A stretch of 64,000 nt of DNA from Pseudomonadota bacterium (GCA_027488375.1 JAIYBW010000010.1:113-64112), one strand, 5' to 3'. Positions 42,199-62,323 are shown, numbered from the stretch's first letter. Notes: generated by a model from the sequence alone, not told the origin. Translations and numbers: made by a program.

Positions 42199-43170
42199 CT
42201 ACAACTCAAAACTCAGCGATTGATGAATCCTCTGTTTTCTCTTGTTATAGGCTTTGGTCGTAGCAATATCCTTATGACCCACAAAATCGGCCACACGATC
42301 AATGGAGTGCCCCTTCTCGAGAAGCATCCCGATCACTGTTGAGCGCGCCGAGTGAACTGTCACATTGCCCTTAATCCCAATTAATTCAGCATATTTTTTG
42401 ATCATATAATTCATGGAGGATCCGTCGAGGCGCTTATTGAGGTCCCCCGAAGTGGGATTGGTGGTGGGGCGAAAAATAAAATCATCCATATCCATAGAGA
42501 AACCCGATTCAGAGCACCACTTCAAATAAGTCCCTATGGCATCGATCGCCCGAGAATTAAGGGGAGTGACCATTTCCTTCGCACCCTTGGCGATATAGCG
42601 CAGAACCAAAAATTCATTTTCATAATCAAGGTTTTTAAATTTGAGATTGGCCAGCTCAGACTGACGCATGCCCGTGGTAAAGAGCAGGGTTAAGATCGCC
42701 CGATGAAGCTTTCCTGATGCCGATTCGGTAGAAATAATATCGAGAAGCTTTTCAACCTGTTCATTACTCAGATCAACGGTCTTCCCCTCTTTAGGAACTT
42801 TGAAGCGTCTGATCCTTTGAACCGGATTAACCGTTACAAGTCCCTGATCTAGTAAGTATTCATAAAATGCAAATAGACAGGCAAAGCTTCTGTTAATCGT
42901 ATTTTGAGAAAGTTTCTTGGCCCTTTCTCCGCCCAAAGAAATGAGCTCATCCTTATAGGCCACAAGATGAGCATGCCCAACTTCAAATTCTGAAATTCCT
43001 TGCATTCTGAATTTCAGGAAACCATAGAACTTTTTAAGTTCTTTTAAGTAGGCCCTTCTCGTATTTGGAGATGAGTAGTTATAAAGAAATCCATAGTAGA
43101 TCTTATTTCGTTCTGAATCTTTTAAGTTCAGAACTTCGGAAGTTCTAAAGTCTCGAATCTCGCCTTCCAT
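42199..43170 (-). CDS. Xer-family tyrosine recombinase (probable plasmid resolvase)
   Basis: SAM-like N-domain (SPNTRRAY, SQNTINRS); full catalytic set GMRQSEL, K, HSAR, GH, Y (TKAY). Start at ATG 43170, overlapping the upstream stop (TAATG). Confidence 0.93.
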   Translation of the reverse strand: MEGEIRDFRTSEVLNLKDSERNKIYYGFLYNYSSPNTRRAYLKELKKFYGFLKFRMQGISEFEVGHAHLVAYKDELISLGGERAKKLSQNTINRSFACLFAFYEYLLDQGLVTVNPVQRIRRFKVPKEGKTVDLSNEQVEKLLDIISTESASGKLHRAILTLLFTTGMRQSELANLKFKNLDYENEFLVLRYIAKGAKEMVTPLNSRAIDAIGTYLKWCSESGFSMDMDDFIFRPTTNPTSGDLNKRLDGSSMNYMIKKYAELIGIKGNVTVHSARSTVIGMLLEKGHSIDRVADFVGHKDIATTKAYNKRKQRIHQSLSFEL

Positions 43171-43853
43171 TATTGATCTCCGGCCCGATTTGATATCCAA
43201 CTCAGAGCAAACTGATATGTTGACCATTCTTTATCAGTGAGATTCTTTTTAAGATCCACGACTTCCATCTTTAGAAGCCCAAGGATAATGCGAAAATTAG
43301 AAATCGACTTCTCAAGATCGGCCATGACACGTTCATTTTCGCTGAACTTTTCAGACCGTTTATAGTTTCTTGAAAAAGTATCTATATTATTAGCAACTAT
43401 GCGAAGTGATTCTTGAACCGAACGGATCTGTTCTTTTTCTCTCTTCTGATATTTTAGAAAAGAATCCATAATGAATCGGATCTTTCTCCCCCTACCCTTG
43501 GTGTTCTTTTCCTGAAAACTGGCCTTATCTAAAAGTTCAATATGCTCTTTAGATAAGCAAATCGTGATATTTTTTGCCTTATCCTCTTTTGACTTAGTGG
43601 GCCTGCCCTTTCCCCGCTTGATTTCAACTGATTCACAAACCGGTGCTGGAGATTTCTCAAAAAATTCAAAAATCACCTTACCTAAGCGCAGCTGTTCTTT
43701 GCGCTTTTCATCTGTTTCCGGAATTTGAGGCGCTAGCAAAGACGGATTTCTAATAATGGCCCGTTCCTGAGTCAGGGTACTTGATGCCCTCTTTTCCTTT
43801 GAGTCTCTCAAAAGAGATCTGAGTGCGAGTTTTGATGATGACATATCTTCCAT
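43170..43853 (-). CDS. Ribbon-helix-helix-like DNA-binding protein with AT-hook-like GRP motif and coiled-coil tail
   Basis: KRGKGRPTKSKEDKAKNITICLSKEHIELLD...RKIRFIMDSF; translationally coupled to the recombinase. Confidence 0.6.
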   Translation of the reverse strand: MEDMSSSKLALRSLLRDSKEKRASSTLTQERAIIRNPSLLAPQIPETDEKRKEQLRLGKVIFEFFEKSPAPVCESVEIKRGKGRPTKSKEDKAKNITICLSKEHIELLDKASFQEKNTKGRGRKIRFIMDSFLKYQKREKEQIRSVQESLRIVANNIDTFSRNYKRSEKFSENERVMADLEKSISNFRIILGLLKMEVVDLKKNLTDKEWSTYQFALSWISNRAGDQ

Positions 43854-44303: not shown

Positions 44304-44812
44304 AAGTTCAAAGATAAAGTGCTTTAGCAGTTTTTAGAGCTTAATCACTTCACATAAAGTTCATTTTAAAATTTTCATTTTCTTATTTCCGAAGTTCAGA
44401 ACTTCTGTAATCAAACTTTTTAAAAAGATAGGACCATAAATTTCAACAATTGCCCCTATGTAAAAGAACCCTTGTTTTCAGGTGCTTAAGACGAGAAATC
44501 AATTCAGAACTTCTGAAGTCATCACGCTTTTGGTATATCGATAGACAGAAGAAAATTTATCTTCCTTGCCCCTACTTCGGAACTTCTACATTTCTAAACT
44601 ACACTACTTATAAACTTCATAAGTTCAGCACTTCATAAGTTCACCGGTTCTTCACTTCAAAAGTTTCAAAGTTAAAAAGTTCAACACTTCAACAGTGTGT
44701 AACTTTGAAAGTTCCAAAATTCTGAAATTCACTAATTAGAAACTTTCATACTTCATTACTTCTTAATTGCAAAAGTTCTGAAGTGCCGTAATATAGAAGT
44801 TAAGAACTGCAG
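44304..44812. repeat. Centromere-like (parS/parC-type) field of AAGTTC/GAACTT and ACTTCA motifs
   Basis: Dense direct and inverted copies, including the perfect palindrome GAAGTTC-A-GAACTTC at 44391-44405, directly upstream of parA. Confidence 0.7.
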
Positions 44813-44817
44813 AAATT

Positions 44818-45696
44818 ATGGAGGATTTGCATATGAAAAATGGAAAGGTCATTTCCGTTATAAATCAAAAAGGTGGCGTTTTAAAGACGACGACTGTACT
44901 TCACCTCGGTTCGGCTTTAGCGAGAATGGGGAAGAAGGTTCTTTTGATCGACCTGGATGTTTCTCAAGCAAATCTTACGATTTCAACCATCGGACAACTT
45001 GATGAAGAGGGTAGGGGAGTTCTGCATGCCTTTTTCAAGGACTGTACTTTAAATCAAGTGACCTATCCAACTTCTCAAGAAAACCTTTTTATTGTTCCCT
45101 CTGAGATCAAATATAAAGGTCGCACGATTCCTCTTGATGTTGCCCTTGCTTCTCAACCTGGATCAGACCAAATCTTGAAAAAGCTACTTAAGCCAATGAC
45201 CAGTGAGTATGACTTCATCATTATAGACAATGGCCCGACTCTTGGTATCGCTACCCTAAATTCACTCATCGCTTCAGAGTATTTCCTAATTCCTACTCTT
45301 GCTGATTACCTTTCTCTTGTTGGTGTTCAGAAAACTATGGAAACAATTGAGCAGATTCGAGAGAACCTCGATCACGAAATCGAAAATTTGGGCCTCGTGT
45401 TAACGATGATTGATGGACGCGAATCAATTGCTAAGGATTCTGAAACAATCCTTAATAATGCATTTGAAGGAAAAGTCTTTAATACATGTATTCAGAGAAA
45501 TTCAAAATTCAAAGAGCTTGCTCAGAATCAAACAACCATCTTTGATGTCACTAAGAATTCTGATAAGGGGAATAAAAATTACCGCGAGCTTGCAGAAGAA
45601 GTGATGAATAGACTTGGTATGAAGTCAGAAATCAAAAACATCAATAAAACAAACAAAATGAAAAATACTGAAGTTTCTGCTGGAGGTATGCAATGA
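44818..45696 (+). CDS. parA: ParA-family partition ATPase
   Basis: Deviant Walker A NQKGGVLKTT, LIDLD, IIIDNGP, IPTLADYLS; no N-terminal HTH (type Ib-like). Alternative start 44833. Confidence 0.92.
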   Translation: MEDLHMKNGKVISVINQKGGVLKTTTVLHLGSALARMGKKVLLIDLDVSQANLTISTIGQLDEEGRGVLHAFFKDCTLNQVTYPTSQENLFIVPSEIKYKGRTIPLDVALASQPGSDQILKKLLKPMTSEYDFIIIDNGPTLGIATLNSLIASEYFLIPTLADYLSLVGVQKTMETIEQIRENLDHEIENLGLVLTMIDGRESIAKDSETILNNAFEGKVFNTCIQRNSKFKELAQNQTTIFDVTKNSDKGNKNYRELAEEVMNRLGMKSEIKNINKTNKMKNTEVSAGGMQ

Positions 45697-46271
45697 GCCT
45701 AGATGTAAATAATTTCAATCTTTTTGCTAAAAAATCTTCGCCTAAGCCAACTCCGATGCCTATCGCTTCTAGCACTAAAGAAGTTATTGAGAAAGAAATT
45801 GAAAAATTCGACGCGGAAATTGTTGAAGCTCCTCTTGTACTTGCTAATAGCAACAATCAAACTATCGAAATCGCCCCAGTTGTTAAAACTGTAGAGATTG
45901 AGAGATTTGAAGATGTTCGTCCGGCCATGGTGAATGTTTCTGCCCAAATGAATAATTATAAAAATATTGAAAAGAACAAAGAAACATCGCCCCTTAGAAA
46001 ATTTGAAACATTTGCGGCCCCCACTTTCAGAATTCCTCAGGAGCATGATTTTGAGCTCAAAAGAATTGAGCAGACAATCATGAGAAATCGCAGAAAAGGT
46101 CAAAATACTGATTCTAGAGAGCGCATTACTTCAAATACTGTTGTCCGCGCCCTTATCTCAAACTTCCTTGATCGAGTAGGAGATATGGATCTATCAAATA
46201 TAGATAATGAAGAGGTATTAAAAGAGAGAATGGAGAAGGTTTTTAAGCAGAAGTATAATAAGAAAATTTAA
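45693..46271 (+). CDS. Probable centromere-binding partner of ParA (disordered N-terminus, C-terminal RHH-like domain)
   Basis: ATGA overlap with parA; TFRIPQEHDFELKRIE...ITSNTVVRALISNFL strand-helix-helix pattern; no ParB CTPase box. Confidence 0.65.
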   Translation: MSLDVNNFNLFAKKSSPKPTPMPIASSTKEVIEKEIEKFDAEIVEAPLVLANSNNQTIEIAPVVKTVEIERFEDVRPAMVNVSAQMNNYKNIEKNKETSPLRKFETFAAPTFRIPQEHDFELKRIEQTIMRNRRKGQNTDSRERITSNTVVRALISNFLDRVGDMDLSNIDNEEVLKERMEKVFKQKYNKKI

Positions 46272-46283
46272 CTGAAAATATTA

Positions 46284-47375
46284 TCAATTCATTGAACTTG
46301 GGGGAAATTTAGTTATTTTCCCAAGTTCATTTCTTTCAATCTTATCCACAGATTTAATCTCATCAATGATAATTGGCAAAATACTTTCTTGAAACATTTC
46401 AGGGATTTTGCTGTCTATTGATTTATCAAATTCTAATAACAGGATGCATCCCTTGCGCTCGTTAGGTCGTACGACAAGATCCATTTTTCCCCAAATATCA
46501 AATTCCAACATATGTCGATCAAGTTTCTCTTTTAATTCAAAAAGATCTATTAATCTTCCCGATGATTTAATTTTGCCATCATATCGACCTAGAGGTGTAA
46601 GGAAATCATCCTTGATAAAGCCAAGATCAGGTAAAGGATAAAAACCATCCTCATCAAGGTATTCCTTAGAAGATGTTAACTTCCAGACATTTTCCAATTT
46701 AATTTCAAACGAAAACAAACTCAGGCCTTTAATCCAAAGTCTTTTCTCCCGATCTGTTTTAAGTTCATGAATTTTTAAAATTTTTAATTCTCTATCAGTT
46801 GATGACTTTGCTGTCGCAATTTGTGACCCTAGTTCACTCATGCCAAAAGTTCTGACAATGGGCCAGCCGAGTAGCCTCGCTTTTTCTTCAAGAGCTATGC
46901 TTAAAAAATCGCCGCCTACAAGAACACATTTAAGCATATGAGGGGCACGTACTTGGTATTTTACAAGATCATAAACTTGAGTTGGCACCAAAGAAATAAC
47001 AGTAACTTTATTTTTAATGATTTTATTACTGATATCAATAGGGTCCCATGGATAGAGATCAATAGGGGTATGTCCGAGAAGTGAAGCCCTAAATAAAACA
47101 CTTATCCCACCCACATGAAATGGAGGTAGTGATAACCCCCAAATATCATCAGAGGTTAGTCCTAAATGACTATTCACTGACTGTGCATTATAGATTAAGG
47201 CCTCTTTTGTAAAAACATATCCCTTTGGTTCTAAAGAGGTCGTTCCGGATGAAAGAAAAACGACATGACCGCTAATTCCATTTGAATTTAAAAACTCACT
47301 AAGACCTCTACGTAAATGTTCAAATTTCGGCGCAAGAATAATGAGATTCTCATTTGAGTTCATAAGAGGGTCCAA
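46284..47375 (-). CDS. menE: o-succinylbenzoate-CoA ligase
   Basis: AMP-binding LSSGTTSLEPKG, LPPFHVGG, SLVPTQ, TFGMSE; men operon context. Confidence 0.85.
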   Translation of the reverse strand: MDPLMNSNENLIILAPKFEHLRRGLSEFLNSNGISGHVVFLSSGTTSLEPKGYVFTKEALIYNAQSVNSHLGLTSDDIWGLSLPPFHVGGISVLFRASLLGHTPIDLYPWDPIDISNKIIKNKVTVISLVPTQVYDLVKYQVRAPHMLKCVLVGGDFLSIALEEKARLLGWPIVRTFGMSELGSQIATAKSSTDRELKILKIHELKTDREKRLWIKGLSLFSFEIKLENVWKLTSSKEYLDEDGFYPLPDLGFIKDDFLTPLGRYDGKIKSSGRLIDLFELKEKLDRHMLEFDIWGKMDLVVRPNERKGCILLLEFDKSIDSKIPEMFQESILPIIIDEIKSVDKIERNELGKITKFPPSSMN

Positions 47376-48196
47376 TTTAAAGATGCAATCTCCTTAATAT
47401 AACTCTCTAGCTCAGACTTATTAGGTAAAAAACCTTCATTGTAATTTCCAGAAAAGAGATCAGAGGAATCCTGATAGATTGAATTGGTTAGAATGCCATG
47501 AAACTCATTCAGATCACCTGAATGAACTAATTCCAAATAAGACTGATAATTAGATAATCCATGACCCATGTTACCACTGAAAATAATACGTTTAGGGTCC
47601 TGAGAAAAAAAATCCCTGTAGGGTTTGAAAATTTTTACATCAGAAGGGGATCCTTGGATAAAATCTTGGGCACAAGGAAGCAAGATATTTTTCCATTGGC
47701 CATCATCGATGGGGTCTTCAATATAATCAATAAAGCGAATAAACTCTTGAGGTATACTAGAGAAAAAATTTCGCCATGATTCTTGAGAAAAAAGTCCATT
47801 GGCATCAAGACGCAGGATATGCTTATCTTCTAATAATTCAAGAAATCCAAAATCATCTTTGTGGCGGATCTTATATTTTATAATCTTTGCGTGAGGTGAA
47901 TCACCTTTCTGAAAGAACTGATGATTGAAAAATCGTATATTTACGCCTAAATCTATCCATTTAGCATCTAATAAATAAAGCGCCTTTTTTTGGGCAAGAG
48001 TCTTTTGTTCTTTAAATGTCTTGAGAAATTCATCTACGCTTTCATCGCCAAGCTCTGGATGTGGGAAATACTCACAGTAACCAATCCCTTTATCAGATTC
48101 AGACTTGAGAAAAACCCCTTCACGAATATGAGTCGAGCTTAAATAATTAAGTTCAACTTTCGGCCGAAGCTTAAATCGATGAAATGAAATCTTCAT
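47360..48196 (-). CDS. menC: o-succinylbenzoate synthase (short form)
   Basis: KYK, LRLDANG, YIEDP enolase-superfamily motifs; operon context. Confidence 0.78.
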   Translation of the reverse strand: MKISFHRFKLRPKVELNYLSSTHIREGVFLKSESDKGIGYCEYFPHPELGDESVDEFLKTFKEQKTLAQKKALYLLDAKWIDLGVNIRFFNHQFFQKGDSPHAKIIKYKIRHKDDFGFLELLEDKHILRLDANGLFSQESWRNFFSSIPQEFIRFIDYIEDPIDDGQWKNILLPCAQDFIQGSPSDVKIFKPYRDFFSQDPKRIIFSGNMGHGLSNYQSYLELVHSGDLNEFHGILTNSIYQDSSDLFSGNYNEGFLPNKSELESYIKEIASLNWTLL

Positions 48197-49047
48197 ACTT
48201 GTATTGAAACTAAAAATAAAACACTAAAAACCACTAAATGAATGCCTGAAAACTTTAGACCAAGATTTAATTGCTCATCCTTTGCAAAAAGTACGATCTT
48301 AGCAAGCTTTAAAGCAGGAATAAGAGCAAGGAAAGTTAGATAAATGAATCCTTCGTGTTTGAAAAAATGAAGAAGGATGTAGGGTAGAAAAATTGTAAGT
48401 AGCGTTAAGCGTATGTAATTTTTAGAACTCATTTTGGTAGCCAGAGTTAATTTGCCAACCTTCTTATCCTCATCTTTATCACGTAGATTATTTATGCAAA
48501 TAAAGGTTGTCGTTAAGCAACCATAGATAATAGCAAGAATCAAAACTTGAAGATTTAATTGCGAAGAAAAAAGATAGTAAGAACCAAGAATTGAAAATAG
48601 ACCAAAAAATAAAAAAACAAAAATTTCCCCTAAGCCTTTATAAGCAAGAGGAAGAGGGCCTCCAGTATAACCATAACTTAAATAAAGAGAAATAACGCCA
48701 AGGAGAGCATAAGGCCATCCACCCTTGAGCAGGATTGGAATAGCTGAAATCATGGCAAATAAAACAAAAAAAATCGCCCAACGAAAAGTAACCTCAGGCC
48801 GAATAAGACCCGAAGCCGTCACACGTGTTGGACCTTTTCTATTGGTATCGGCACCCTTCTTAAAATCAATCACATCGTTAAAAAAATTTGTGGCAATCTG
48901 AATACATAAAGCACTAATGAGGCAAGAAATAAAAATCAAATAAGGTCGATCAACAAAATGAACTTGAAAATAAATAAAACTCACAACTGGCGGAATTAGA
49001 CTCGCCAGAAGTGTTTTAGGTCTCATGGCCAAGATTAAATTATTCAT
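48193..49047 (-). CDS. menA: 1,4-dihydroxy-2-naphthoate prenyltransferase
   Basis: RPKTL, NDVIDFKKGAD, YTGGPLPLAYKGLGE, NNLRD..ED..VGK.TLA. Confidence 0.92.
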   Translation of the reverse strand: MNNLILAMRPKTLLASLIPPVVSFIYFQVHFVDRPYLIFISCLISALCIQIATNFFNDVIDFKKGADTNRKGPTRVTASGLIRPEVTFRWAIFFVLFAMISAIPILLKGGWPYALLGVISLYLSYGYTGGPLPLAYKGLGEIFVFLFFGLFSILGSYYLFSSQLNLQVLILAIIYGCLTTTFICINNLRDKDEDKKVGKLTLATKMSSKNYIRLTLLTIFLPYILLHFFKHEGFIYLTFLALIPALKLAKIVLFAKDEQLNLGLKFSGIHLVVFSVLFLVSIQV

Positions 49048-49694
49048 AGATTGATCTCACTATTAATTATTTCTTGAATATACTTTTTCTTTAAATGAAC
49101 ACGATGATCAGACTGAATACCAATGGTTTTAATACCGCGAAGGGCAAGATTCCATGCAATCTCAGCATATTTTTTATCTTGATAACCAAAAACATAAAGA
49201 ATTTTCTCTCTATTATTATTCATTTCTTCAAAATAATTTGGCTGCTGTGAAAGACGATGATTTTCAAAAAGGGTGATTGATTTTTTAAATAAAGCCTTGT
49301 CAATTGGTCGATAGTCTTGGGATTGATTAAAAAGTGGTAGTGAATTCCAGTAAGTGAAAAAGTCATCGAGAGAACTTGTTCGCAGTCTCAAGATAATCTC
49401 CTCCTCCCAAAGCATTCTATCCTCAATTTCGCTGGATTCCAGTCCTGGATGTGAACTCAAAAGAATCACTTTTTTTACATCAAAATTATTGTTTACAGCT
49501 ACTCTTAAAGCAACTCGACCACCTAATGAATAACCGACCAGAATATCATTTGGGCCTATTTTCAGTTGATTTATATCTTCAACGGTTAAATCATAAAGAT
49601 TATAAATTCTTGTCGAATGTTCATCGAATTTGTAATTATTCCACATAGTAGGATGGTCGAATTGACCGTGAAAAAAATGAATCATGAGTCCCAT
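49044..49694 (-). CDS. menH: SHCHC synthase (alpha/beta hydrolase)
   Basis: HGQF, GYSLGGRVAL, SSHPGL, DKKY; operon context. Confidence 0.82.
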   Translation of the reverse strand: MGLMIHFFHGQFDHPTMWNNYKFDEHSTRIYNLYDLTVEDINQLKIGPNDILVGYSLGGRVALRVAVNNNFDVKKVILLSSHPGLESSEIEDRMLWEEEIILRLRTSSLDDFFTYWNSLPLFNQSQDYRPIDKALFKKSITLFENHRLSQQPNYFEEMNNNREKILYVFGYQDKKYAEIAWNLALRGIKTIGIQSDHRVHLKKKYIQEIINSEINL

Positions 49695-51097
49695 TCCTTA
49701 AGAAATGCTAATGTTGCATCTGGATTTGTCTCGATTTCTAAAATATTAACTTCAAAGAGTTTTGAAAAATCATTCTTCACATAAGATTTCCCAAAGGCCG
49801 CAGCAATGTTGCTAAAATTATTCTCGTGTTCAAGAACCAGTTTACTATCTAGTTTCATCGTTTCAAAAATTCTTCCCCCAAAATTATTAATAATAATGAG
49901 TTTTAAATTATGGGGGATATCTTTCATCGCTGATAAATCATAATGAGTCGTTAAATCACCAAGAATGCAGTAAACGGTTTTCTCAGTACTCACAGCGATG
50001 CCAATAGCTGTCGATAGCTGACCATCAATACCATTCACACCGCGGTTACCAAAAAATTGATACTTCTTCTTATTCACAAGTTCAAAAAATCTAATAATGA
50101 GTGAGTTACCTAAGTAAACAAGACTATTCTCTGGTATGTATTCCTCAAGCCTAGAAAGCACAGCGGGATCAGATTTAGGGTATTTGGAGATCAATTGAAT
50201 TAAAAATGATTCATGAGTTTGATCAATTTTTAATTCTTGGGATTTCTTCAGAATAGTCCAAAACGCATCCATTTTGATTAATTGATTTGAATTTATGGGC
50301 ATAACTGAGCCATGAGACAGTCCAGTAAAACCTCGTTCATCAAAACTAAATTGGGGGTAAGGGTATTCTTCTAAGTTGCGCCATAATTTTGAAAGGGGTG
50401 TATGACCTATCCTAATCACACTTGTTATTTTTTTATCACTTAATGCCTTTAAAATATCTCTTTCAAAACGAAAAGTTGATTCATGGTGGACACCAGAAAG
50501 AATTTCCCCGTAAAAAGGAATTCCTAAATCCTTTAATGAACGTCCCAATAGGTCCATACATGTGTTTTCATGACTTAGAAGAATGAGTGGTGAGGGATTT
50601 TCTAGAATAAATTTATCAAATCCCGTCCAATCTGATGTGTATTCCTTCGGACTAAAAAGAGGCTTCTCATTTTTCTTTTCAATCAAGACATTTATATGAG
50701 CTGGATAATCAATAAGAGAAATATCAAGCTGATTCAAATCTTCTAAATTTAATTCAATAAAAGAGCCCCTGACTCCTCTTGTGACAATTTCATGGTCGAT
50801 GGTTTGAGGTGAGGCCTTGCCATGCATCTTTTTTGGTCTATCCCCAGTAATAAGTAAAAAGGGGAGATTACTGTAAAAGGCTTCAGTCATAGCGGACAAG
50901 CACTCAGTCACAGCAGTCCCTGATGTAGTACAAATTGCAATTGGAGAGCCTAATATTTTTGTTTTTCCAAGGGCCTTAAATGATCCAGATCGCTCATCAA
51001 CTTCATAACTTATTTTATTGTGATTAAAGAAATTAAGGAGATCATTATTCCTAGCTCCTGTGCAGAAATAAACATGGTCCAAATCAAAAAGCTTCAT
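49682..51097 (-). CDS. menD: SEPHCHC synthase (ThDP-dependent), short form
   Basis: VDERSGSF.ALG, CTTSGTA, TGDRP, NRGVNGIDG, GDL..HYD, INNFGG.IF. Confidence 0.9.
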   Translation of the reverse strand: MKLFDLDHVYFCTGARNNDLLNFFNHNKISYEVDERSGSFKALGKTKILGSPIAICTTSGTAVTECLSAMTEAFYSNLPFLLITGDRPKKMHGKASPQTIDHEIVTRGVRGSFIELNLEDLNQLDISLIDYPAHINVLIEKKNEKPLFSPKEYTSDWTGFDKFILENPSPLILLSHENTCMDLLGRSLKDLGIPFYGEILSGVHHESTFRFERDILKALSDKKITSVIRIGHTPLSKLWRNLEEYPYPQFSFDERGFTGLSHGSVMPINSNQLIKMDAFWTILKKSQELKIDQTHESFLIQLISKYPKSDPAVLSRLEEYIPENSLVYLGNSLIIRFFELVNKKKYQFFGNRGVNGIDGQLSTAIGIAVSTEKTVYCILGDLTTHYDLSAMKDIPHNLKLIIINNFGGRIFETMKLDSKLVLEHENNFSNIAAAFGKSYVKNDFSKLFEVNILEIETNPDATLAFLKEWDS

Positions 51098-52164
51098 AAG
51101 AATAATTCTTTTACTGTTTCACGCTTTAATTTAATTTCATTCAACTCAGATGATGCATTCGACTCTTTAATGACTCCTGCACCAGATTCGATGATGAGCT
51201 CATCATCTTTTAATTGAATATTTCTAATCATCACAAGAGCACGATTGTTTTTGAAATGATTAACGCCAAAGACTGATCCAAAAAATCTGTTCGGAAATTT
51301 TTTTGAATAATGAGATTTTTCTAAAAAATTCTTGGCCATTGTTTTTGGCTGTCCACCAAGAGCTGCAGTTGGGGAAAGAGTATCCACTAAATCAAATAAT
51401 CTGTAATGATCCTTTAAAACGCCCTTTATGTCGGTTCTTAGATGGATCATTTTTGAGTAGGGTGTAATATAAGTTTCACCTGTATCAATCTTTGTGCAAA
51501 AGGGTTCGAGACTTTGATTTATATTCTCAATGACGAGATCATGTTCAATTTTATCTTTGAGTGATGTTCGCAATATCTCTTCATCACCTTTTTTTGCCGT
51601 ACCTGCGAGAGCAACTGTATGAATATTATTCGCTTTTATATCAAAAAGAATCTCTGGCGTTGAGCCCATAATGGAAAACTTTTGATTCCAAAGACCGTAG
51701 GGTAGTCCAACTTTAGAGGTTACTGTTTTGTAGAATAAACGCTTTTTAAAATTAATTGGGTTATCGACTTGTATCTTTTCTGAAGATATCAGAACAGCTT
51801 TTTTAAAATCATGATCTAATTCTTTTTGAAGGTCCTGAAAATCCTTTAAAAATAAGTCATCATAGTTTTCTTTTATTTCATATTTAAGGGTCAGATTATT
51901 GTAATCTGCTAGCGCCAATTCAACCTTCTGTTTGTCAATCTCAAGTATATCTTCAGGATAATAATAGTAATATTGAGGGCGGTAGAATTCTTTAATATAA
52001 AAGAACACATTTTTTTCAGGAATTTTCTTTTCACTAAAATAACCGCCTTTACCCAACAGAAGGGTTTGATTGTCATTGATTAACGTAAAAGCACCTTGCT
52101 TAAAAAAGCTTTCATCGATCCAATTATCTAAATGATCAATCGATTCATTCATTAATAAACCCAT
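51094..52164 (-). CDS. menF: Isochorismate synthase / chorismate-binding enzyme
   Basis: KAVL, GSTPE, ALAGT, KDKIEH, HLRT, PTAALGG, GAGV...S....E..E. Confidence 0.85.
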   Translation of the reverse strand: MGLLMNESIDHLDNWIDESFFKQGAFTLINDNQTLLLGKGGYFSEKKIPEKNVFFYIKEFYRPQYYYYYPEDILEIDKQKVELALADYNNLTLKYEIKENYDDLFLKDFQDLQKELDHDFKKAVLISSEKIQVDNPINFKKRLFYKTVTSKVGLPYGLWNQKFSIMGSTPEILFDIKANNIHTVALAGTAKKGDEEILRTSLKDKIEHDLVIENINQSLEPFCTKIDTGETYITPYSKMIHLRTDIKGVLKDHYRLFDLVDTLSPTAALGGQPKTMAKNFLEKSHYSKKFPNRFFGSVFGVNHFKNNRALVMIRNIQLKDDELIIESGAGVIKESNASSELNEIKLKRETVKELFL

Positions 52165-53033
52165 GGAAATTTTTGAAATTCAGCCTCTCTTTTCTCTAAA
52201 AAAGCATTCTTCCCTTCGCGGGCCTCTTCAGTGCCATAGGCGAGTCTAGTGGCCTCACCTGCAAAAACTTGTTGTCCCACAAGACCATCATCAACAAGAT
52301 TAAAGCTAAATTTGAGCATCTTCATGGCTGTCGGTGATTTTGAACAAATAATCTTTGCCCAATTGAGCGCCTCTTCTTCAAGGAGATCATGGGGAACTAC
52401 TTTATTGACCATACCCATTTCGAAGGCTTCTTGAGCAGAGTAAGCCTGTCCGAGAAAGAAAATTTCACGAGCACGTTTTTGACCAATTTGTCGAGCTAGG
52501 TAAGCCGAGCCATAGCCACCATCGAAACTCGCAACATCAGGATCTGTTTGACGAAAGAGGGCATGTTCTTTTGAGGCGATAGTAAGATCACATATAGCAT
52601 GGAGAGAATGCCCACCACCCACGGCCCATCCAGGTACAACCGCGATGACAATCTTAGGCATAAACCTGATCATTCTTTGAACTTCTAGTATATGCAGTCT
52701 TCCGTGCCTGTAATCATTTTTGTCCTTGTAATCATAGCCGGTACTTCCTCTCACATTCTGATCTCCACCGGCACTAAAAGAGTAAATTCCATCTTTTGAA
52801 GACGGACCATTTCCAGTTAAAAGAATGGCGCCGACATCATTTTGACGATGGGCCCACTCGAAAGCGATTAATAATTCATCCACAGTCAGTGGTCTGAATG
52901 CGTTTCTTAGATCAGGTCTATTGAAAGCAATTCTTACAGCACCAGTATTACGGGCACGGTGAAGAGTGATATCTTCAAAATTAAAATTTTCAACTTCATT
53001 CCATTCATTTTTATTAAACGTTGGGGATATCAT
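52152..53033 (-). CDS. menB: 1,4-dihydroxy-2-naphthoyl-CoA synthase
   Basis: Crotonase fold; AGGDQ, LHILEVQR, GGGHSLH, SFDGGYG, QVFAGEAT.LAYGT.EA.EG. Confidence 0.95.
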   Translation of the reverse strand: MISPTFNKNEWNEVENFNFEDITLHRARNTGAVRIAFNRPDLRNAFRPLTVDELLIAFEWAHRQNDVGAILLTGNGPSSKDGIYSFSAGGDQNVRGSTGYDYKDKNDYRHGRLHILEVQRMIRFMPKIVIAVVPGWAVGGGHSLHAICDLTIASKEHALFRQTDPDVASFDGGYGSAYLARQIGQKRAREIFFLGQAYSAQEAFEMGMVNKVVPHDLLEEEALNWAKIICSKSPTAMKMLKFSFNLVDDGLVGQQVFAGEATRLAYGTEEAREGKNAFLEKREAEFQKFPWVY

Positions 53034-53713
53034 ATTAACCTCTTTGCTTCATAGATATAGGCAATCCCTCCAAAAAGAGGGTGATATTTAATTTCAGTAA
53101 AACTAGTATGTTTCTTTAGAAGGGAGCAAAATTTCTCCCCACTCGGGAATTTTTCTGACGAACTAATGAGGTAGTCATAAGCATCAGACCTCTTCGTCAG
53201 CAATGAGAACACAGGAAAGTAGGCTTTAAGGGATGAAAAATAGATTTTCTTCCAAAGATTATTTTCAGGAGTCCCAAATTCTAGAATAAAGAGATTTTTA
53301 GAAACTCGTGATAACTCTTGAAGGGATTTTTCCAAATTTTCGACATTTCTAATCCCAAAAGATATAGTCGCAACATCGAATTCTTCTTCTTTAAAAGGAA
53401 GATTTGAAACATCTTGAACCTGAAAATCAATACAGGATCCTTTCTTGAGCTTGCGTTCATTAGCAGCTTTAATCATAAGAGGCGAGAAATCAATCGCCGT
53501 GATTTTTTGGATACTTCTCTCCTCAAAGCCAAAAGCAATATCTCCAGTACCAGTAGCACAATCAAGTACTGACCGGGTCTCAGATTTAAGAGCTGAATTA
53601 ATCAGCTTCTTTTTCCAAAGACGATGAGTTCCAGCGGAAAGTAAATCATTTAGTAAGTCATATCTTGAAGATATGTCGTCGAACATAGACTTTATATATT
53701 GTGCATTAGGCAT
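53030..53713 (-). CDS. menG: Demethylmenaquinone methyltransferase (MenG/UbiE)
   Basis: MFDDISSRYDLLND, LDCATGTGD, ISFGIRNV, YDYL..S...FP. Confidence 0.9.
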   Translation of the reverse strand: MPNAQYIKSMFDDISSRYDLLNDLLSAGTHRLWKKKLINSALKSETRSVLDCATGTGDIAFGFEERSIQKITAIDFSPLMIKAANERKLKKGSCIDFQVQDVSNLPFKEEEFDVATISFGIRNVENLEKSLQELSRVSKNLFILEFGTPENNLWKKIYFSSLKAYFPVFSLLTKRSDAYDYLISSSEKFPSGEKFCSLLKKHTSFTEIKYHPLFGGIAYIYEAKRLI

Positions 53714-53714
53714 T

Positions 53715-54476
53715 TTATACTCTCAGTTTCTTTTCGAAAATTGGACAGGCCCGACCTAGTTTATGAATAAGCTCTTGATACATCTTTAAATCAAGCGCCT
53801 GTTCCGGATCAGAAAGAGCTTGATTTGGTTGTGGATGGACTTCAACTAAAATTCCGTCGGCGCCAGAGGCAAGGGCCGCCAGAGACGCTTGCACAACATA
53901 CTTTGAGTCACCCATGGCATGAGAAGGATCGACAAAAACTTTGAAAGGGTGATTTTTTTTCAAATACATCACAGCACCTAGATCTAGGGTATTTCTAAGT
54001 TTAGTTTCAAAAGTACGAATACCTCTCTCACAAAGATAAATGTTTTCCTCTCCAAGGTCTGAAAGATAATCAGTTGCCCCTAACCATTCATTAATTGTGG
54101 CGCTAAAACCTCTTTTAAGGAGAACTGGCTTATTGAGTCTTGAGAGCTCCTTCAATAGCTCATAGTTGTACATGTTTCTTGCACCAACTTGAAAACAATC
54201 AATCACAGGCAGAAGTGAATCAATTTGTCTTGGGTCTGTGATTTCAGTGATAAATTTAAAGGGTCTTGTTTTTTTTAAGTTTTTTATGATTTCAATTCCC
54301 TCAGGCCCAAGGCCCTGAAAGCTAGATTTTTTAGTTCGCATTTTATAAATACCCCCTCTAATTAATGAAGGGGTCACTTCAGAATTCAAGACGCTTTGAA
54401 GTTGTGAATGACTTTCAATTGCACATGGCCCAGATATAACTAAAAATTCAGGACTGTCTTTATTGAATAAGTTCAT
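53715..54476 (-). CDS. aroF: DAHP synthase, type I-beta, no regulatory domain
   Basis: GPCAIES, K.RT...SFQGLG, QVGARNM, PVLLKRG, CERGIRTFE, DPSH, EVHP. Confidence 0.88.
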   Translation of the reverse strand: MNLFNKDSPEFLVISGPCAIESHSQLQSVLNSEVTPSLIRGGIYKMRTKKSSFQGLGPEGIEIIKNLKKTRPFKFITEITDPRQIDSLLPVIDCFQVGARNMYNYELLKELSRLNKPVLLKRGFSATINEWLGATDYLSDLGEENIYLCERGIRTFETKLRNTLDLGAVMYLKKNHPFKVFVDPSHAMGDSKYVVQASLAALASGADGILVEVHPQPNQALSDPEQALDLKMYQELIHKLGRACPIFEKKLRV

Positions 54477-55405
54477 TTAGTCCTCTCTTTAATTTGATCA
54501 ATGAAATTAAAAACTTCTTGAGTAATCTCAAGGATGTTCTCAGTATTAGAAGACATAGTAATTTCTGCAAAAAGAACTTTGGCCTCATTCAGGATAAAAT
54601 CAACTTCTTCTTTCGTATCGTTTTGCGCCTCTTCTATTTGTTGAGAAGACCAGGGTCCATCAGAGAACTGACTTCCTCTCATTTGATGAACAACATAATA
54701 GAGTTCCGGATATCTCTTCAGGAGATTTAGAGTGGTAAAATTAATTAATCCATCTTGCAGGTCTTTGTGCTTATCTTTTCCTGAGACACTGGAGAAATCT
54801 AAATTATCGTCAATCATTTGAAAGGCAACTCCAATTTTTTCACCAAAGAGGTGACATTTTTTGACTATATTTTCTTGGGCTCCTGCGACCTGGGCAACCG
54901 ACGAGCAACACCAAGCAAGTAAGGCCCCTGTTTTTTTCCGAGACACTTCAATGAGCTCTTCTTTTGAATTAGTCCCTTTTATTTTGAGTTGATCCTGAAG
55001 AAATTCACCCTCCACAATATCCTCTAGAGCTTCCGAGATTGTTCTAAGAATTTCGTATTCACCGGCACTGACTAATTCACTGATGACCCTAGCAAGAAGG
55101 AAATCTCCGGCAAGCACTGCTCTTGAATTTGTAGTTTTCTTGTGAAGTGTTAGTTCACCTCGTCGGGTATCGGCTTCATCAACGACATCATCATGAATTA
55201 AAGAAGCCGTATGAATAAGTTCAGCAGATCTTGCAATCAAGTATTGTTTTTCTTTTTCGAGATTAAAAATGAGTCCGAAAATTTCGATTATTTTTGGTCT
55301 CATCATTTTTCCACTATGTGAAAGATGAGAGTTAATGACTTCTTGAACTCTATAAGCGTTGCCCCTTCCTGAGAGCTTTAGGAATGATAAATCAGCATTT
55401 GTCAT
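54473..55405 (-). CDS. Polyprenyl diphosphate synthase
   Basis: GKMMRP, HTASLIHDDVVD..DTRRG, AGDFL, KTGAL, FQMIDD motifs; first gene of the operon. Confidence 0.9.
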   Translation of the reverse strand: MTNADLSFLKLSGRGNAYRVQEVINSHLSHSGKMMRPKIIEIFGLIFNLEKEKQYLIARSAELIHTASLIHDDVVDEADTRRGELTLHKKTTNSRAVLAGDFLLARVISELVSAGEYEILRTISEALEDIVEGEFLQDQLKIKGTNSKEELIEVSRKKTGALLAWCCSSVAQVAGAQENIVKKCHLFGEKIGVAFQMIDDNLDFSSVSGKDKHKDLQDGLINFTTLNLLKRYPELYYVVHQMRGSQFSDGPWSSQQIEEAQNDTKEEVDFILNEAKVLFAEITMSSNTENILEITQEVFNFIDQIKERTK

Positions 55406-55569
55406 TAAATACTCCTTTTAAAGTTTAATATCTCTTAAACTTTAAAATCACTAGTTAGACATTGCTCTGTTCAAATTAAATCGATTCTTTGTTTAAGGTT
55501 TTTTTAACTTAAATAGAAAATCTATGAAGCTCAATTTGCAGGTGGAGGATATTTATTGGTAATATTTAA

Positions 55570-56196
55570 CTCCGCTAAAAACATCACAATAGTAAGTAGA
55601 TAATTTAAGTAACTACATACTTACTAAAGAGATTTTGAAATCTATTAATATTAATGACTTAAAAGATTTCATTCCGTTAAAAACATCAACTTACTCCTTC
55701 ATCGACATCGGCCTGGTCCGCCAATCACATCACTTGATTCCATCAATAACATCAACAAGGTTGGTAATCACATCACTTAAAAGAAAACTCCACCAATCAC
55801 ATCACTTAAAGTCTGCCAAAGACATCACACAAATAAGCATCTGAGAAAAACTCCGTTAAAAACATCACGATAAATACTTAGAAGGGTCTGATTTTGGCCA
55901 AAAACATCAAAGCATGATGTCTTTGCCGGAGTTTCTTAAAAAAATATTTTCATCGTTGATGTTTATGGCGGAATTTTGACAATTATCGGGGCGGCCAATC
56001 CATTTACTCCACTAAAAACATCAAACCATGATGTCGATGGCCTACTTTTCCTAGCACTGTTAGAGGCCGTGATGTTTTTGGCCCACTTTCTAGCGGCATG
56101 ATGTTTTAAAAAGAATTCTGCCCCTATGATGTTTTTGGCCTACAAAATATTTTGTGATGTTTTCGGCCGAAAAAATGTGCTTGATGTTTTTAGTGG
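55570..56196. repeat. Iteron array / replication origin upstream of rep
   Basis: Core ACATCA (often in CC.(C/T)AAAAACATCA) on + at 55581, 55683, 55727, 55749, 55770, 55799, 55822, 55862, 55904, 56018 and as TGATGT at 55915, 55957, 56029, 56070, 56099, 56127, 56155, 56182; AT-rich flank 55410-55670. Confidence 0.85.
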
Positions 56197-56220
56197 AAAA
56201 AAGAAATAATTAAGTAACAT

Positions 56221-57726
56221 ATGGAAAATTTTGAAATTAATACTCTGAGTTCAAGTTCTACCTTCAATGCATTAAAGGCGCAGCATAACCTTGCTGAGTT
56301 AAATGCTACAGATACAGCCCCCGTTGTTGTCTCTAACCCCAATGACATAGTGAACTTCAAGTCTGAGTTCAATATCGGTCTCGCACTTCCTTTTGAGTTT
56401 TGCAAAAATAAAAAACAAGACAAATTTGAGAAGCACTCAATGACCAAGTGGTTTGATGAGAACAGTAATCTTCATCGCCTAGAGGTCGTCTTTCGTGGAA
56501 ACTCTGGTGCCGCGGGGAAATTAGACCAGGACGTTTTAAACATCCTCATGTCGATGTGTGTGGAGCAGAAGACTGACTCACCTGTCTTCACCTACGAAGA
56601 GATTAGAAAGCGCCTGGGCCTTTCTAAGGGCTCTCACGGCAACATTCGAGACTCCATCCAGCGTATGCTTGGAATGACCATAGAATTCAAAAAATCCTTC
56701 TATTCTACTTCAGGCTCTAAAAATGTGGATGTTGAAAAGCATCTTATTCAGTCAAGAAAATCTGTTGTCAACGAAGACTACGCTGACCTTAAAAACCTTG
56801 ATGCCCGCCATAGTGTGACCTTTGATAAGGACATTATGCAAAATCTCCTAGGTGGATATTATTCAGTTCTTTCTCGTGAAACTTACCTAAGCCTAGATAG
56901 TGGGGCCGTGAGACGCCTTTATCAGTTAATCGTCTCCCATCGAGATGTTGGTAAAAGAAACGTCTTCACTTTAGAGATTGAAGACATTGCTTCCGTATTA
57001 GGACTTACAAACAAAAAAGAGTTCTTCGGAAACATTAAAAAATACTTCGAGTCCCTTAAAACAGCACTTCCGGATCTAGACTACGTATTTGCAACAGTTG
57101 AAAGAAAGAAAGTTGTTAAGATCTCTTTCCCTGAAACTCATCTCCTTGCTCAAGGTGATCAGTTCCTTGATTCACTTGTAAAGTGGTATGGAGAAGATGT
57201 TTTAGTTACAAATGAAATCTCTCCTGACTTTTTATCTGATCTTCGAGCGAAATATCCAACTAAAGTAGAATTTGAAAAAACAAAAGTTTATCTCTGCGAA
57301 CTCTTAGTAGATATGGTTTTATTCCAAAAGATCACAAACCGAGGCCAAATTAAGTCAGTACGAGCGATTATCTTCGCCTCACTTAATAAGCAAATGGAAT
57401 ACACAAAGCCTGAGGGCTATAAGAGATTTGTAACTGAGAGAGTAAAGCTGAAAGATATTATTGAAACTAAAGAGCTTGCCCTCAAAGAAGTTGAGAGAAA
57501 GAAATTTGAGGTTCAAGTCACAGAGAAGAAAACTCGTGAGCTTGCTGCACTCACTTTTCTGACTGTAAAAAAAGAGCCAAGAGTTTATGCAAAATATGAG
57601 AAAGAAGCCTATAAGCTTTATGGCGAGGAAATTAGAACATCGCTCTTAGGAGAGCAGATTTTAGAAGAGCGTATTAAAGAATTAATTCAGGCCAGAATGG
57701 AAGCTGGCGAACAGATAATGTCATAA
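56221..57726 (+). CDS. Plasmid-type replication initiator (winged-helix RepA/TrfA-like)
   Basis: SEFNI..LPF, DQDVL, FTYEEIRKRLG.S, FDKDIMQNL.GGYY, AVRRLYQL pattern; flanked by iterons and dnaB. Confidence 0.75.
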   Translation: MENFEINTLSSSSTFNALKAQHNLAELNATDTAPVVVSNPNDIVNFKSEFNIGLALPFEFCKNKKQDKFEKHSMTKWFDENSNLHRLEVVFRGNSGAAGKLDQDVLNILMSMCVEQKTDSPVFTYEEIRKRLGLSKGSHGNIRDSIQRMLGMTIEFKKSFYSTSGSKNVDVEKHLIQSRKSVVNEDYADLKNLDARHSVTFDKDIMQNLLGGYYSVLSRETYLSLDSGAVRRLYQLIVSHRDVGKRNVFTLEIEDIASVLGLTNKKEFFGNIKKYFESLKTALPDLDYVFATVERKKVVKISFPETHLLAQGDQFLDSLVKWYGEDVLVTNEISPDFLSDLRAKYPTKVEFEKTKVYLCELLVDMVLFQKITNRGQIKSVRAIIFASLNKQMEYTKPEGYKRFVTERVKLKDIIETKELALKEVERKKFEVQVTEKKTRELAALTFLTVKKEPRVYAKYEKEAYKLYGEEIRTSLLGEQILEERIKELIQARMEAGEQIMS

Positions 57727-57733
57727 GGTGAGC

Positions 57734-59068
57734 ATGGAAGCATTAAACAACAATACAAATGAACTTCTTATCGCTGAAAGAGCATTTTTATCAACGGTCA
57801 TTTCTGACCCCGACTCAATGGGAGAAATCGACTCACTAAAGATAGACGCCGATGACTTCATTGAATTCAGAAATCGCCTTGTTTATCAGCACTTCATAAA
57901 GTTAAAAAATTCAGGAATTAACCCAGACTACATTACACTTGCCGAGAGCTTAAACTCGGCCGGCGAGCTTGAAAAAGTAGGAGGACAATCCTTCCTCGTA
58001 AGTATATTTGATGAGTACGCAAGCTCTGCAAACCTAAAGAGCTATGCCGATCTGATTAAAAGAAAGTCTGTTTTTCGTGATGTCGTTCAAAAAGCAAAAG
58101 AGATTCAATCCATCGCAATCAATGGTGAAGTCACTCAAGATGAGCTTCTTGGGAAAATCAATAAGATCCTAATTGATCTAAATGATAATTCAACCAATGG
58201 TAATTCACTTGATTTAAAAGACTCCATCCTTCAAGTGATTCAGGATTTAAGAGATAAAGACTCCATTAAATCAAAGCTCACGAAGACGGGATTTGATTCA
58301 ATTGATGATAAGATTGTTGGGATTTCCCCAGGACAATTAATTGTTCTAGCTGCTCGACCATCGATGGGTAAAACCGCCCTTGCTTTAAATATCGGTCAAA
58401 AAATTGCTGAAAACTATAATGAGCATGTTGTTGTTTTCTCACTTGAAATGCTTCATGGTGAGCTTACTCAGCGCTTGATTTCCATGGAAGCCTTAGTTAA
58501 TTCTCAAAAATTTAAGTCCCGTGAGTTTAATGCTGAGGACTTAAAGAGAATTGCAAGCGCCTCTGAAAAGCTGTCTAAGCTTCCCATGATTATTGATGAC
58601 TATTCATCAACTTCTCTAGCAAGGATTCGCACTCAGTGCCTACGCTATAAGGCCAAACATGGAAAGCTTCGTGCCGTAGTTGTGGATTATCTACAGCTCA
58701 TGACCATGGAAGAGACTAAAAAAGGCAATAAGGCCGATGATATTGGTGTTATCACAAGAGGTCTTAAGCTTCTTGCTAAAGAGCTTGAATGCCCCGTAAT
58801 CCTTCTTTCTCAGCTTAATCGTGGGGTAGAAGGAAGAGATAATAAGCGTCCAATGCTTCAGGATTTGCGCTCTTCTGGGGATATTGAGCAAGATGCCGAC
58901 ATGGTATGGTTTATTTACCGTGATGAGGTTTATAACGCTGATACGGTCAATAGAGCAGAAGCTGAAATCATTATCGCAAAAAACCGCGGGGGAGAAATAG
59001 GAACAGCGAAACTTGCCTGGAGGGGTGAGTTTACAAAGTTTATATCTCGGGCTGAGGATATTTTTTAA
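57734..59068 (+). CDS. dnaB: Replicative DNA helicase
   Basis: AARPSMGKT, FSLEM, VVDYLQLM, LSQLNR.VE.R..KRP...DLR.SG.IEQDAD. Confidence 0.95.
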   Translation: MEALNNNTNELLIAERAFLSTVISDPDSMGEIDSLKIDADDFIEFRNRLVYQHFIKLKNSGINPDYITLAESLNSAGELEKVGGQSFLVSIFDEYASSANLKSYADLIKRKSVFRDVVQKAKEIQSIAINGEVTQDELLGKINKILIDLNDNSTNGNSLDLKDSILQVIQDLRDKDSIKSKLTKTGFDSIDDKIVGISPGQLIVLAARPSMGKTALALNIGQKIAENYNEHVVVFSLEMLHGELTQRLISMEALVNSQKFKSREFNAEDLKRIASASEKLSKLPMIIDDYSSTSLARIRTQCLRYKAKHGKLRAVVVDYLQLMTMEETKKGNKADDIGVITRGLKLLAKELECPVILLSQLNRGVEGRDNKRPMLQDLRSSGDIEQDADMVWFIYRDEVYNADTVNRAEAEIIIAKNRGGEIGTAKLAWRGEFTKFISRAEDIF

Positions 59069-62128: not shown

Positions 62129-62323
62129 TGTGGGGAAATTGAGAAAGATCCCAACATGGTATAGTTTATCTATCGTGATGAGGTCTATAACGCCGATAAG
62201 GCCAGTAAAGCAGACGCTGAAATCATTATTGCCAAAAAATGCGTCGGGGAAATAGGAACTGCGAAACTCACCTGGAAAGGTGAGTTTACGAAGTTCGATG
62301 CGAGATCAGAGGTTGTTTTTAAA
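62129..62323 (+). pseudogene. 3' remnant of a dnaB homolog
   Basis: CGEIEKDPNMV*FIYRDEVYNADKASKADAEIIIAKKCVGEIGTAKLTWKGEFTKF..., colinear with 58874-59068 (195 bp each); TAG at 62162-62164. Confidence 0.93.

Follow-up and report, generated by a model that had tools for sequence, protein, structure and literature searches.

The only menaquinone operon found in a Bacteriovorax-like genome lies on a 64-kb plasmid-type replicon, probably a very small chromid

The stretch of DNA analysed here, 64,000 nucleotides long and hereafter called the window, covers bases 113-64112 of contig C9 (64,568 bp) in the genome assembly GCA_027488375.1 (G000 in what follows; other G numbers stand for the genomes of relatives and L numbers for individual loci). 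The genome is that of a freshwater, Bacteriovorax-like predator of the Bacteriovoracaceae, the named relatives in its genus being lake metagenome-assembled genomes labelled Bacteriovoracaceae or Bacteriovorax stolpii. Between the partition genes and the replication origin of C9 lies an operon of ten genes for the synthesis of menaquinone (men) at 46284-55405, and it is probable that C9 is a small replicon of plasmid type which captured the single-copy men operon of its own lineage and has since become a very small chromid. A preliminary description of the window had already proposed a respiratory-quinone module on a plasmid-type replicon, which is borne out by the circular contig and by its iterons, Rep, DnaB and ParA. 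Two roles had been offered for it. That of an indispensable chromid is favoured by the presence of the only men operon of the assembly, by the failure to find any other route to quinones there and by an empty ancestral site, with indispensability itself being deduced and not observed; that of an added capacity for low-oxygen respiration finds no support, as the operon is the lineage's own and not an extra import.

The window is nearly all of a circular plasmid and not chromosome. The first and last 119 bases of C9 are identical, giving a circle of 64,449 bp, this 119-mer has no other occurrence in the assembly, and a frame of 869 amino acids (aa) runs unbroken over the end junction; the circularity check suggested beforehand was thus answered by a terminal overlap and a junction-spanning frame. 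Most of the other G000 contig ends link among themselves, as chromosome fragments would, and not to C9. The preliminary description had allowed for the opposite outcome, an ordinary chromosomal window with a men operon syntenic in relatives, and one half of that scenario stands, the operon being syntenic on the chromosome in relatives, but the window itself is not chromosome. In composition the replicon resembles its host: the tetranucleotide correlation between C9 and the chromosome (r=0.971) falls inside the span of 0.960-0.99 given by the chromosome's own 64-kb chunks, the correlation of relative synonymous codon usage is r=0.976-0.977, and the guanine-plus-cytosine (GC) content is 36.7%, that of the main contigs being 38.3-38.5%. 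Pfam scans of essentially all C9 open reading frames (ORFs) of at least 85 aa detected neither a relaxase nor type IV secretion genes.

The backbone of C9 is that of an iteron plasmid with a partition system. An iteron origin at 55566-56203, located by a repeat search and sharing its repeat with relatives, holds about 18 copies of ...CCG(Y)TAAAAACATCA / GGCCAAAAACATCA in two convergent arrays. Counted at one mismatch or fewer, 18 of the 38 matches to AAAAACATCA in the window fall within 615 bp (55577-56191), the other 63 kb holding about 20, and 38 matches were reached in none of 100 shuffles. The putative replication initiator Rep (56221-57726, plus strand; 501 aa) gives a borderline match to PF10134 (Replication initiator protein A; 26.4 bits vs a cut-off of 27) and has no match in NCBIfam, in the PDB or among the 72,556 plasmids of PLSDB; in relatives, iterons always precede it and DnaB always follows. 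Next to it, a full-length plasmid-encoded replicative helicase, DnaB, occupies 57728-59068 (plus strand; TIGR00665, 426 bits, above cut-off), to which the chromosomal DnaB on contig C8 is 44% identical. On the far side of the operon, the partition ATPase ParA (44818-45696, plus strand; PF13614, E=2e-45, with matches to the ParA_partition and RepA-partition models) shares 79% identity with the ParA adjoining Rep on contig C23 of G017. Translationally coupled to parA is the gene of its partner, presumed to be the centromere-binding protein (45693-46271, plus strand; 192 aa), which has no Pfam, NCBIfam or PDB match and is 36% identical to the product of the same-position gene in G017. Centromere-like repeats of the AAGTTCAGAACTTCTG family lie upstream of parA at 44380-44810, the same repeat family being found upstream of the G017 parA. 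Further out, a Xer-like tyrosine recombinase (42199-43227, minus strand; PF00589, E=6e-28, with the XerD and XerC models below cut-off) is likely the multimer resolvase or a cassette recombinase of the plasmid. A short segment at 62132-62190, downstream of outer-membrane protein and peptidase genes, was separately noticed, in a blastn comparison with L072, to match the 3' end of dnaB from a relative at 86% identity, consistent with a duplicated remnant of that end of the gene.

All ten ORFs of the operon were found on the minus strand and assigned to families through Pfam and NCBIfam profile searches, in keeping with the earlier account of ten coupled genes. The first gene (54473-55405) encodes a long-chain polyprenyl-diphosphate synthase for the menaquinone side chain (PF00348, E=1.9e-50), whose best NCBIfam models are the solanesyl-, heptaprenyl- and octaprenyl-diphosphate synthases, all below cut-off. 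It is followed by a 3-deoxy-D-arabino-heptulosonate 7-phosphate (DAHP) synthase reduced to the catalytic barrel (53715-54476; PF00793, E=1.8e-58), which covers positions 94-332 of the 338 of PRK08673; since only the catalytic part of the profiles of regulated enzymes is matched, the protein has no regulatory domain, as had been claimed for it. MenG/UbiE demethylmenaquinone methyltransferase (53030-53713; TIGR01934, 200 bits vs a cut-off of 158) and the 1,4-dihydroxy-2-naphthoyl-CoA synthase MenB (52152-53033; NF006186, 515 bits vs a curated cut-off of 378) come next, and then a compact isochorismate synthase, MenF, of 356 aa (51094-52164; PF00425, E=5e-39; TIGR00543, 151 bits, below cut-off). 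MenD, a compact 2-succinyl-5-enolpyruvyl-6-hydroxy-3-cyclohexene-1-carboxylate synthase of 471 aa (49682-51097), scores 170 bits with TIGR00173, below cut-off, and its best PDB matches are all MenD; MenH, an alpha/beta hydrolase of 216 aa acting as 2-succinyl-6-hydroxy-2,4-cyclohexadiene-1-carboxylate synthase (49044-49694), likewise matches TIGR03695 below cut-off (E=8e-28). The operon closes with the 1,4-dihydroxy-2-naphthoate polyprenyltransferase MenA (48193-49047; TIGR00751, 124 bits vs a cut-off of 102; NF004751, 218 bits), a compact, Bdellovibrio-type o-succinylbenzoate synthase, MenC, of 278 aa (47360-48196; OSBS_N domain PF22015 and NF047905, below cut-off), and a compact o-succinylbenzoate-CoA ligase, MenE, of 363 aa (46284-47375; TIGR01923, E=1.6e-34, below cut-off). 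For every one of MenF, MenD, MenH, MenC, MenE and MenB, the expected enzyme is the top family match. An exact-protein look-up of MenD returned no matching record.

Adjacent genes overlap by 4-16 bp at eight of the nine junctions and are separated by a single base pair at the other; they therefore form a single translationally coupled operon. The coordinates also confirm its reported position relative to the backbone: 12 bp separate the stop of menE from that of the ParA partner gene, which converges on it, and the operon starts at 55405, about 160 bp from the first iteron, with transcription directed away from the origin. The presumed promoter and leader (55406-55565, minus strand), which adjoins the iterons, is the sole non-coding DNA upstream of the first gene. 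A consensus scan for promoters and terminators found fewer promoter-like sites than in shuffled sequence and was therefore uninformative.

This operon contains the only men genes, and constitutes the only quinone pathway, in the assembly. A tblastn search of G000 with all ten operon proteins found no second MenF, MenD, MenH, MenA, MenC, MenE or MenG, the other matches being crotonase paralogues of MenB, a 40%-identical DAHP synthase on contig C1 and a 30%-identical prenyl synthase on contig C7; this last is the farnesyl-diphosphate synthase, the only other member of its family in the genome. The check for further men, mqn or ubi genes in the host, proposed at the outset, turned up no other quinone pathway in the assembly. 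MqnA, the marker of the futalosine pathway, is absent from it, as is cytochrome bd, and the one strong chromosomal gene of the UbiA family, considered as an alternative quinone route, proved to be the heme O synthase. The chromosome encodes, besides that enzyme, two nuoH genes for the quinone-binding subunit of complex I. Because respiration needs quinone and the plasmid copy is the only one, C9 is probably indispensable, a view drawn from the single copy, the lack of any other quinone pathway and the presence of complex I.

The enzymes of the operon look functional, as judged from intact genes and conserved catalytic motifs. MenD and MenC had been remarked upon as short, and they are indeed shorter than the E. 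coli and B. subtilis enzymes, but they are no anomaly: such lengths are usual in this genus, in which the ORFs called in fetched relatives give 466-472 aa for MenD and 264-288 aa for MenC, and a wider listing of MenD gives open frames of 471-499 aa. The best PDB match of MenD is 2x7j (E=8e-31), with which the DERS stretch of the N-terminal thiamine diphosphate-binding (PYR) domain and the GDL...NN thiamine diphosphate motif align. In MenC, residues K107-Y-K109, D131, E160/D161, D178 and K191 are invariant across a ten-sequence alignment of the genus, and the best PDB match of its profile is the o-succinylbenzoate synthase 3caw (E=4.6e-21), with which the KxK, D, E, D and K residues of the enolase superfamily align.

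The one step for which the cluster offers no candidate is the hydrolysis of 1,4-dihydroxy-2-naphthoyl-CoA (DHNA-CoA). As the preliminary description had said of MenI, no such hotdog thioesterase lies in or beside the cluster or among the small ORFs of C9. Nor does MenI occur in the men cluster of any relative examined, where the neighbours are a response regulator, a histidine kinase and DoxX-like membrane proteins, with no thioesterase. A 137-aa ORF of C9 beside its sigma-54 regulator was considered for this role and rejected, being unrelated to the thioesterase that holds the corresponding position on contig C4. Four hotdog thioesterases are encoded elsewhere in G000 (C7:487401-487874, C1:2512-2934, C4:14319-14720 and C6:301862-302344), that on C4 with a weak match to MenI_Staph (54 bits vs a cut-off of 225), and one of these four unlinked enzymes presumably performs the step. 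In E. coli, too, MenI is unlinked to the men operon.

Comparison with relatives indicates that the operon is native to the lineage and was moved, not imported. The gene order and the compact protein lengths of the men operon are constant across the genus, one search having found MenD in 23 of 24 same-genus relatives, and only two of the further relatives checked lacking men genes. A DAHP synthase lies within the operon of every genus member examined except G017, which has no homologue beside its operon; the prenyl-diphosphate synthase is joined to it only in the clade of G000, G012, G178, G009 and G003. Identities to G000 in MenD and in an LptD-like species marker, respectively, are 63% and 88% for G012, 62% and 77% for G178, 63% and 73% for G009, 51% and 70% for G003, and 47-50% and 62-65% for the more distant G011, G005, G017 and G020, so that MenD identity appears to follow the ranking of the marker. 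Three clades appear in a concatenated tree of seven men proteins, and they are those of the marker tree, so that the proposed comparison of Men phylogeny with taxonomy showed agreement at clade level. The codon usage of the men genes likewise correlates with that of chromosomal genes at r=0.976, random ten-gene chromosomal sets averaging 0.973.

The place from which the operon came can be recognised in relatives. The operon of G011 (a single 3.99-Mb contig), G005 (a 1.54-Mb contig), G017 and G020 is flanked on one side by orthologues of the genes at C6:314651-315900, one trmD-like and one lipocalin-like, and on the other by orthologues of those at C6:318252-319406, a 195-aa gene and an rplS-like gene. 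In G183, G160, G076, G128, G015, G021 and G007, MenD is found about 15 kb from the LptD-like marker, and the coordinates place the operon at the trmD-rplS site there too. This site, which harbours the operon in most congeners, is best read as its ancestral chromosomal location. In G000 the trmD-like and rplS-like flanks are contiguous on a 450-kb contig, and between them stands one ORF for a 718-aa secreted protein (C6:316059-318215) with no men remnant at the site. Contig C1 of G009 carries in the same slot a replacement gene 75% identical to that of G000 (L058, 9765-11942); the operon therefore left the ancestral site before these two lineages split. No family was detected for the replacement protein of about 720 aa.

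Elsewhere in the genus the operon has taken yet other positions. It keeps one ancestral flank in G003 and G171; in G178 and G009 it lies among genes whose G000 orthologues are on contig C7, in a region that is contiguous in G000; and in G177 it stands beside C8-like genes. Occurring in at least four genomic contexts within one genus (G003, G171, G177, G178, G009; L023, L025, L054-L057), it is unusually mobile for a core operon.

The linkage of men genes, origin and Rep recurs in three other assemblies and is not an artefact of this one. In the closest species, G012 (LptD-like marker 88% identical), contig C106 carries DnaB (90%), Rep (92%), the origin and, at the contig end, the prenyl synthase (75%) in the same order; the origin shares 79% identity with that of C9 across 650 bp and has the same iterons, and a second G012 contig continues from MenG through MenE. 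Two metagenome contigs, L069 (6.8 kb, 74.6% identical) and L073 (3.65 kb, 85% identical; Rep 98%), are collinear with the window across men, origin and Rep. The backbone also exists without this cargo: on the 61-kb contig C23 of G017, parB/parA and rep/dnaB are only 1.2 kb apart, the spacer between them consists of centromere-like AAGTTCAGAAGTT repeats and the same iteron type, and there are no men genes, the men operon of G017 being at the ancestral chromosomal site. Two other genera also contain Rep-DnaB pairs, at 70-72% and 60% identity, and the distant congener G175 contains two copies, at 84-85% (L029, L030, L037-L040, L045); the backbone therefore moves horizontally, and it represents an undescribed, horizontally mobile replicon family of the Bacteriovoracaceae. 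Within the genus it is sparsely distributed, with a close Rep homologue in only 4 of 50 other genomes and a marginal match of 114 residues in G003. The men genes had been called unusual plasmid cargo, and they are: of 72,556 PLSDB records, 41 carry MenD-like genes, most of these being megaplasmids, secondary chromosomes or mislabelled chromosomes, and a literature search brought to light neither plasmid-borne men genes nor large plasmids reported for Bacteriovorax or Bdellovibrio.

Taken together, these comparisons suggest a course of events in which a mobile, ParA-partitioned plasmid of the iteron-type Rep-DnaB family would have captured the lineage's own men operon between par and origin, the capture in G000 following the operon's earlier departure from the ancestral trmD-rplS site. 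In the cell as it now is, the DAHP synthase would feed carbon into the shikimate pathway; MenF, MenD, MenH, MenC, MenE and MenB would lead from chorismate to DHNA-CoA; the long-chain prenyl-diphosphate synthase would build the side chain, which MenA would attach; and MenG would methylate the product. With the plasmid copy now presumably the sole one, the plasmid would be kept through the respiratory function that it carries. The copy number of C9 and the route of capture are what we infer, not what was observed.

Several observations weigh against this reading. The replicon is not conserved across the genus, and at 64 kb it is smaller than the co-resident plasmid C4 (73 kb), which are two respects in which it departs from a chromid. 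MenD, MenC, MenE, MenF and MenH score under the NCBIfam cut-offs, the family match of Rep is borderline, and the AlphaFold model of Rep has a mean predicted local distance difference test score of 55.6 and a predicted template modelling score of 0.33, too low for a fold search. The men proteins of G000 and G012 (MenD about 63%) are no closer to each other than those of G000 are to G178 or G009, despite identities of 88% in the LptD-like marker and 92% in Rep, and the operon or the plasmid may have been exchanged within the clade. A similar excess is seen between G003 and G171, which are 97% identical in LptD and 77% in MenD, as compared with 88% and 63% for G000 and G012; in distant species both proteins diverge about equally. 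Faster evolution through plasmid carriage was considered and set aside, for G003 and G171 also show long men branches relative to the LptD-like marker, and the excess men divergence is therefore not specific to plasmid carriage.

The objection that touches the status of C9 most directly is that the operon was relocated to the plasmid but is dispensable there, the need for it being conditional or filled by the quinones of the prey, which a periplasmic predator might salvage, so that the plasmid would be an accessory replicon that can be lost. In its support, MenB, MenA, MenD and MenE are all missing from the bins of two near relatives, G163 (91% complete) and G173 (94%), where only crotonase paralogues turn up, and this absence could be real loss; the at least four changes of location within the genus suggest loose anchoring, and the remaining cargo of the plasmid is clade-specific and accessory, not core. 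Yet metagenome bins frequently miss plasmids, and this could account just as well for G163 and G173; the operon is present in most of the genus genomes searched, and the ten genes of C9 are intact, coupled and conserved in their catalytic residues, in a cell whose chromosome keeps two nuoH genes and the heme O synthase with no alternative quinone pathway found. Dispensability is on this balance unlikely, and the picture of a captured operon that the cell cannot spare is retained as the probable one.

Doubts of another kind concern the assembly. C9 might derive from a co-occurring strain or represent an integrated element flanked by repeats, with the host's own men genes in sequence that was not assembled. 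The assembly is rated 91% complete, which leaves room for a second men copy in unassembled DNA, and the GC content of C9 is 1.7 points below that of the main contigs; moreover, how many copies of C9 there are, whether it also exists in integrated form and whether it shares a cell with this chromosome are judged from the assembly, and if the genome is a metagenome bin, the membership of C9 depends on binning. Against this stand the uniqueness of its terminal repeat and the long ORF over the junction, the ancestral site that is contiguous and empty on a 450-kb contig, the equally contiguous G000 counterpart of the region that holds the operon in G178 and G009, the recurrence of the linkage in three further assemblies, a composition and codon usage matching the chromosome, men genes that group with those of the nearest species, and a contamination of only 1.4%; an artefact is accordingly judged very unlikely. 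Barely credible is the notion that the operon is foreign cargo of a mobile plasmid, conferring an extra respiratory quinone, for example at low oxygen. The mobility of the Rep-DnaB backbone across genera and into a distant congener, and the G000-G012 men divergence beyond that expected from the marker, could be cited for it, but there is no pathway in the assembly to which it would be an addition, the gene order and the compact enzymes are specific to the genus, the nearest men relatives are those of the nearest species, with a tree that matches the marker at clade level, and the codon usage is indistinguishable from that of chromosomal genes.

By the definition attributed to Harrison et al. 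(2010), chromids are secondary replicons that replicate in the manner of plasmids but bear core genes. Known examples are Rhizobium etli p42e, Sinorhizobium meliloti pSymB and chromosome 2 of Vibrio. C9 resembles them in its plasmid-type replication and partition, with an origin, Rep and Par, in its host-like composition and codon usage and in a core function that is chromosomal in related species; unlike them, it is only 64 kb in size, bears a single core pathway and has an arrangement confined to G000, G012 and two metagenome contigs. It encodes no rRNA, tRNA or other housekeeping genes besides that pathway. Iteron theta plasmids such as F, P1, pPS10 and RK2, and the RPA family (PF10134), share with C9 the direct and inverted iterons beside rep and a nearby ParA operon with centromere-like repeats, whereas the Rep of C9 has only a borderline match to PF10134 and is paired with a DnaB of its own, and its ParA partner belongs to no known family.

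For the operon itself, the classical counterparts of the o-succinylbenzoate pathway are menFDHBCE of E. coli and menFDHBEC of B. subtilis. The same MenF, MenD, MenH, MenC, MenE and MenB families are present on C9, together with MenA and MenG; unlike those operons, that of C9 joins all of these steps with a DAHP synthase and a side-chain synthase in ten genes, and its enzymes are compact, with a MenC of the Bdellovibrio type. The nearest parallel to the proposed capture is the formation of F-prime and R-prime plasmids, in which a plasmid picks up adjacent chromosomal genes. C9 is comparable in having a native chromosomal operon on a backbone that also exists without it; it differs in that the chromosome no longer has a copy, which leaves that of the plasmid as the only one, in that neither integration scars nor insertion sequences at the flanks were identified, and in that par has the opposite orientation to that in the backbone without men.

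If correctly read, C9 would offer a clean case in which the conversion of a plasmid into a small chromid can be traced, with the ancestral site, the empty site, the cargo-free backbone and the cargo-bearing plasmid all to be found within one genus, and with the cell's entire respiratory-quinone supply, rare on small plasmids, as the relocated function. For metagenomics, it implies that bins of this group may seem to lack menaquinone if the plasmid is left unbinned. The undescribed native Rep-DnaB-ParA replicon could become a vector for research on Bdellovibrio-like predators, and the unusually compact MenD, MenC, MenE and MenF are of interest to enzymology. A bolder extension, tentative and on the whole doubtful, would regard the men operon, seen at the trmD-rplS site, in three or more further chromosome-like settings and on a plasmid, as a roaming core cassette whose capture could act as a metabolic addiction device that stabilises the plasmid without a toxin-antitoxin system. 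With the promoter 160 bp from the iterons, Rep binding or plasmid copy number might couple quinone supply to replication, and plasmid transfer could move respiratory capacity between Bacteriovoracaceae species. Were it true, transfer of the plasmid among Bacteriovoracaceae would explain why the men divergence between G000 and G012 does not track the marker.

The rest of the C9 cargo is of a different nature. It includes a rhodanese, a HAD hydrolase, two ceramidases, an FHA protein, RmuC, a beta-carbonic anhydrase, a sigma-54 two-component pair, a TonB receptor, an SCO1-like protein, a signal-peptidase-II-like protein, a P-type ATPase, as well as pilin-like and large secreted proteins. RmuC, the SCO1-like protein and the rhodanese were considered as further relocated core genes and turned out instead to be clade-specific accessory paralogues. 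Close homologues of RmuC (17567-18970) and of the SCO1-like protein (31777-32736) are found only in G012 (83% and 64%, respectively) and G009 (79% and 44%), the other congeners searched having distant, shorter versions or none.

Two minor observations may be added. G000 contains a second contig with a 119-bp circular overlap, C4 (73,102 bp, 35.8% GC), which lies outside the window. It encodes a distant paralogue of the C9 Rep at C4:69144-70580 (27% identity) and a sigma-54 response regulator 72% identical to that of C9, and the thioesterase with the weak MenI_Staph match, mentioned above, is a YbgC-type enzyme of this contig; G000 thus probably has two related plasmids, C9 and C4. The ceramidase-family genes of C9 comprise a neutral/alkaline ceramidase N-terminal domain protein (10638-11954) and a member of the Ceramidase family (32723-33400). 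Bacteriovorax stolpii makes sphingolipids, so the two enzymes may act on sphingolipids of the cell itself or of its prey.

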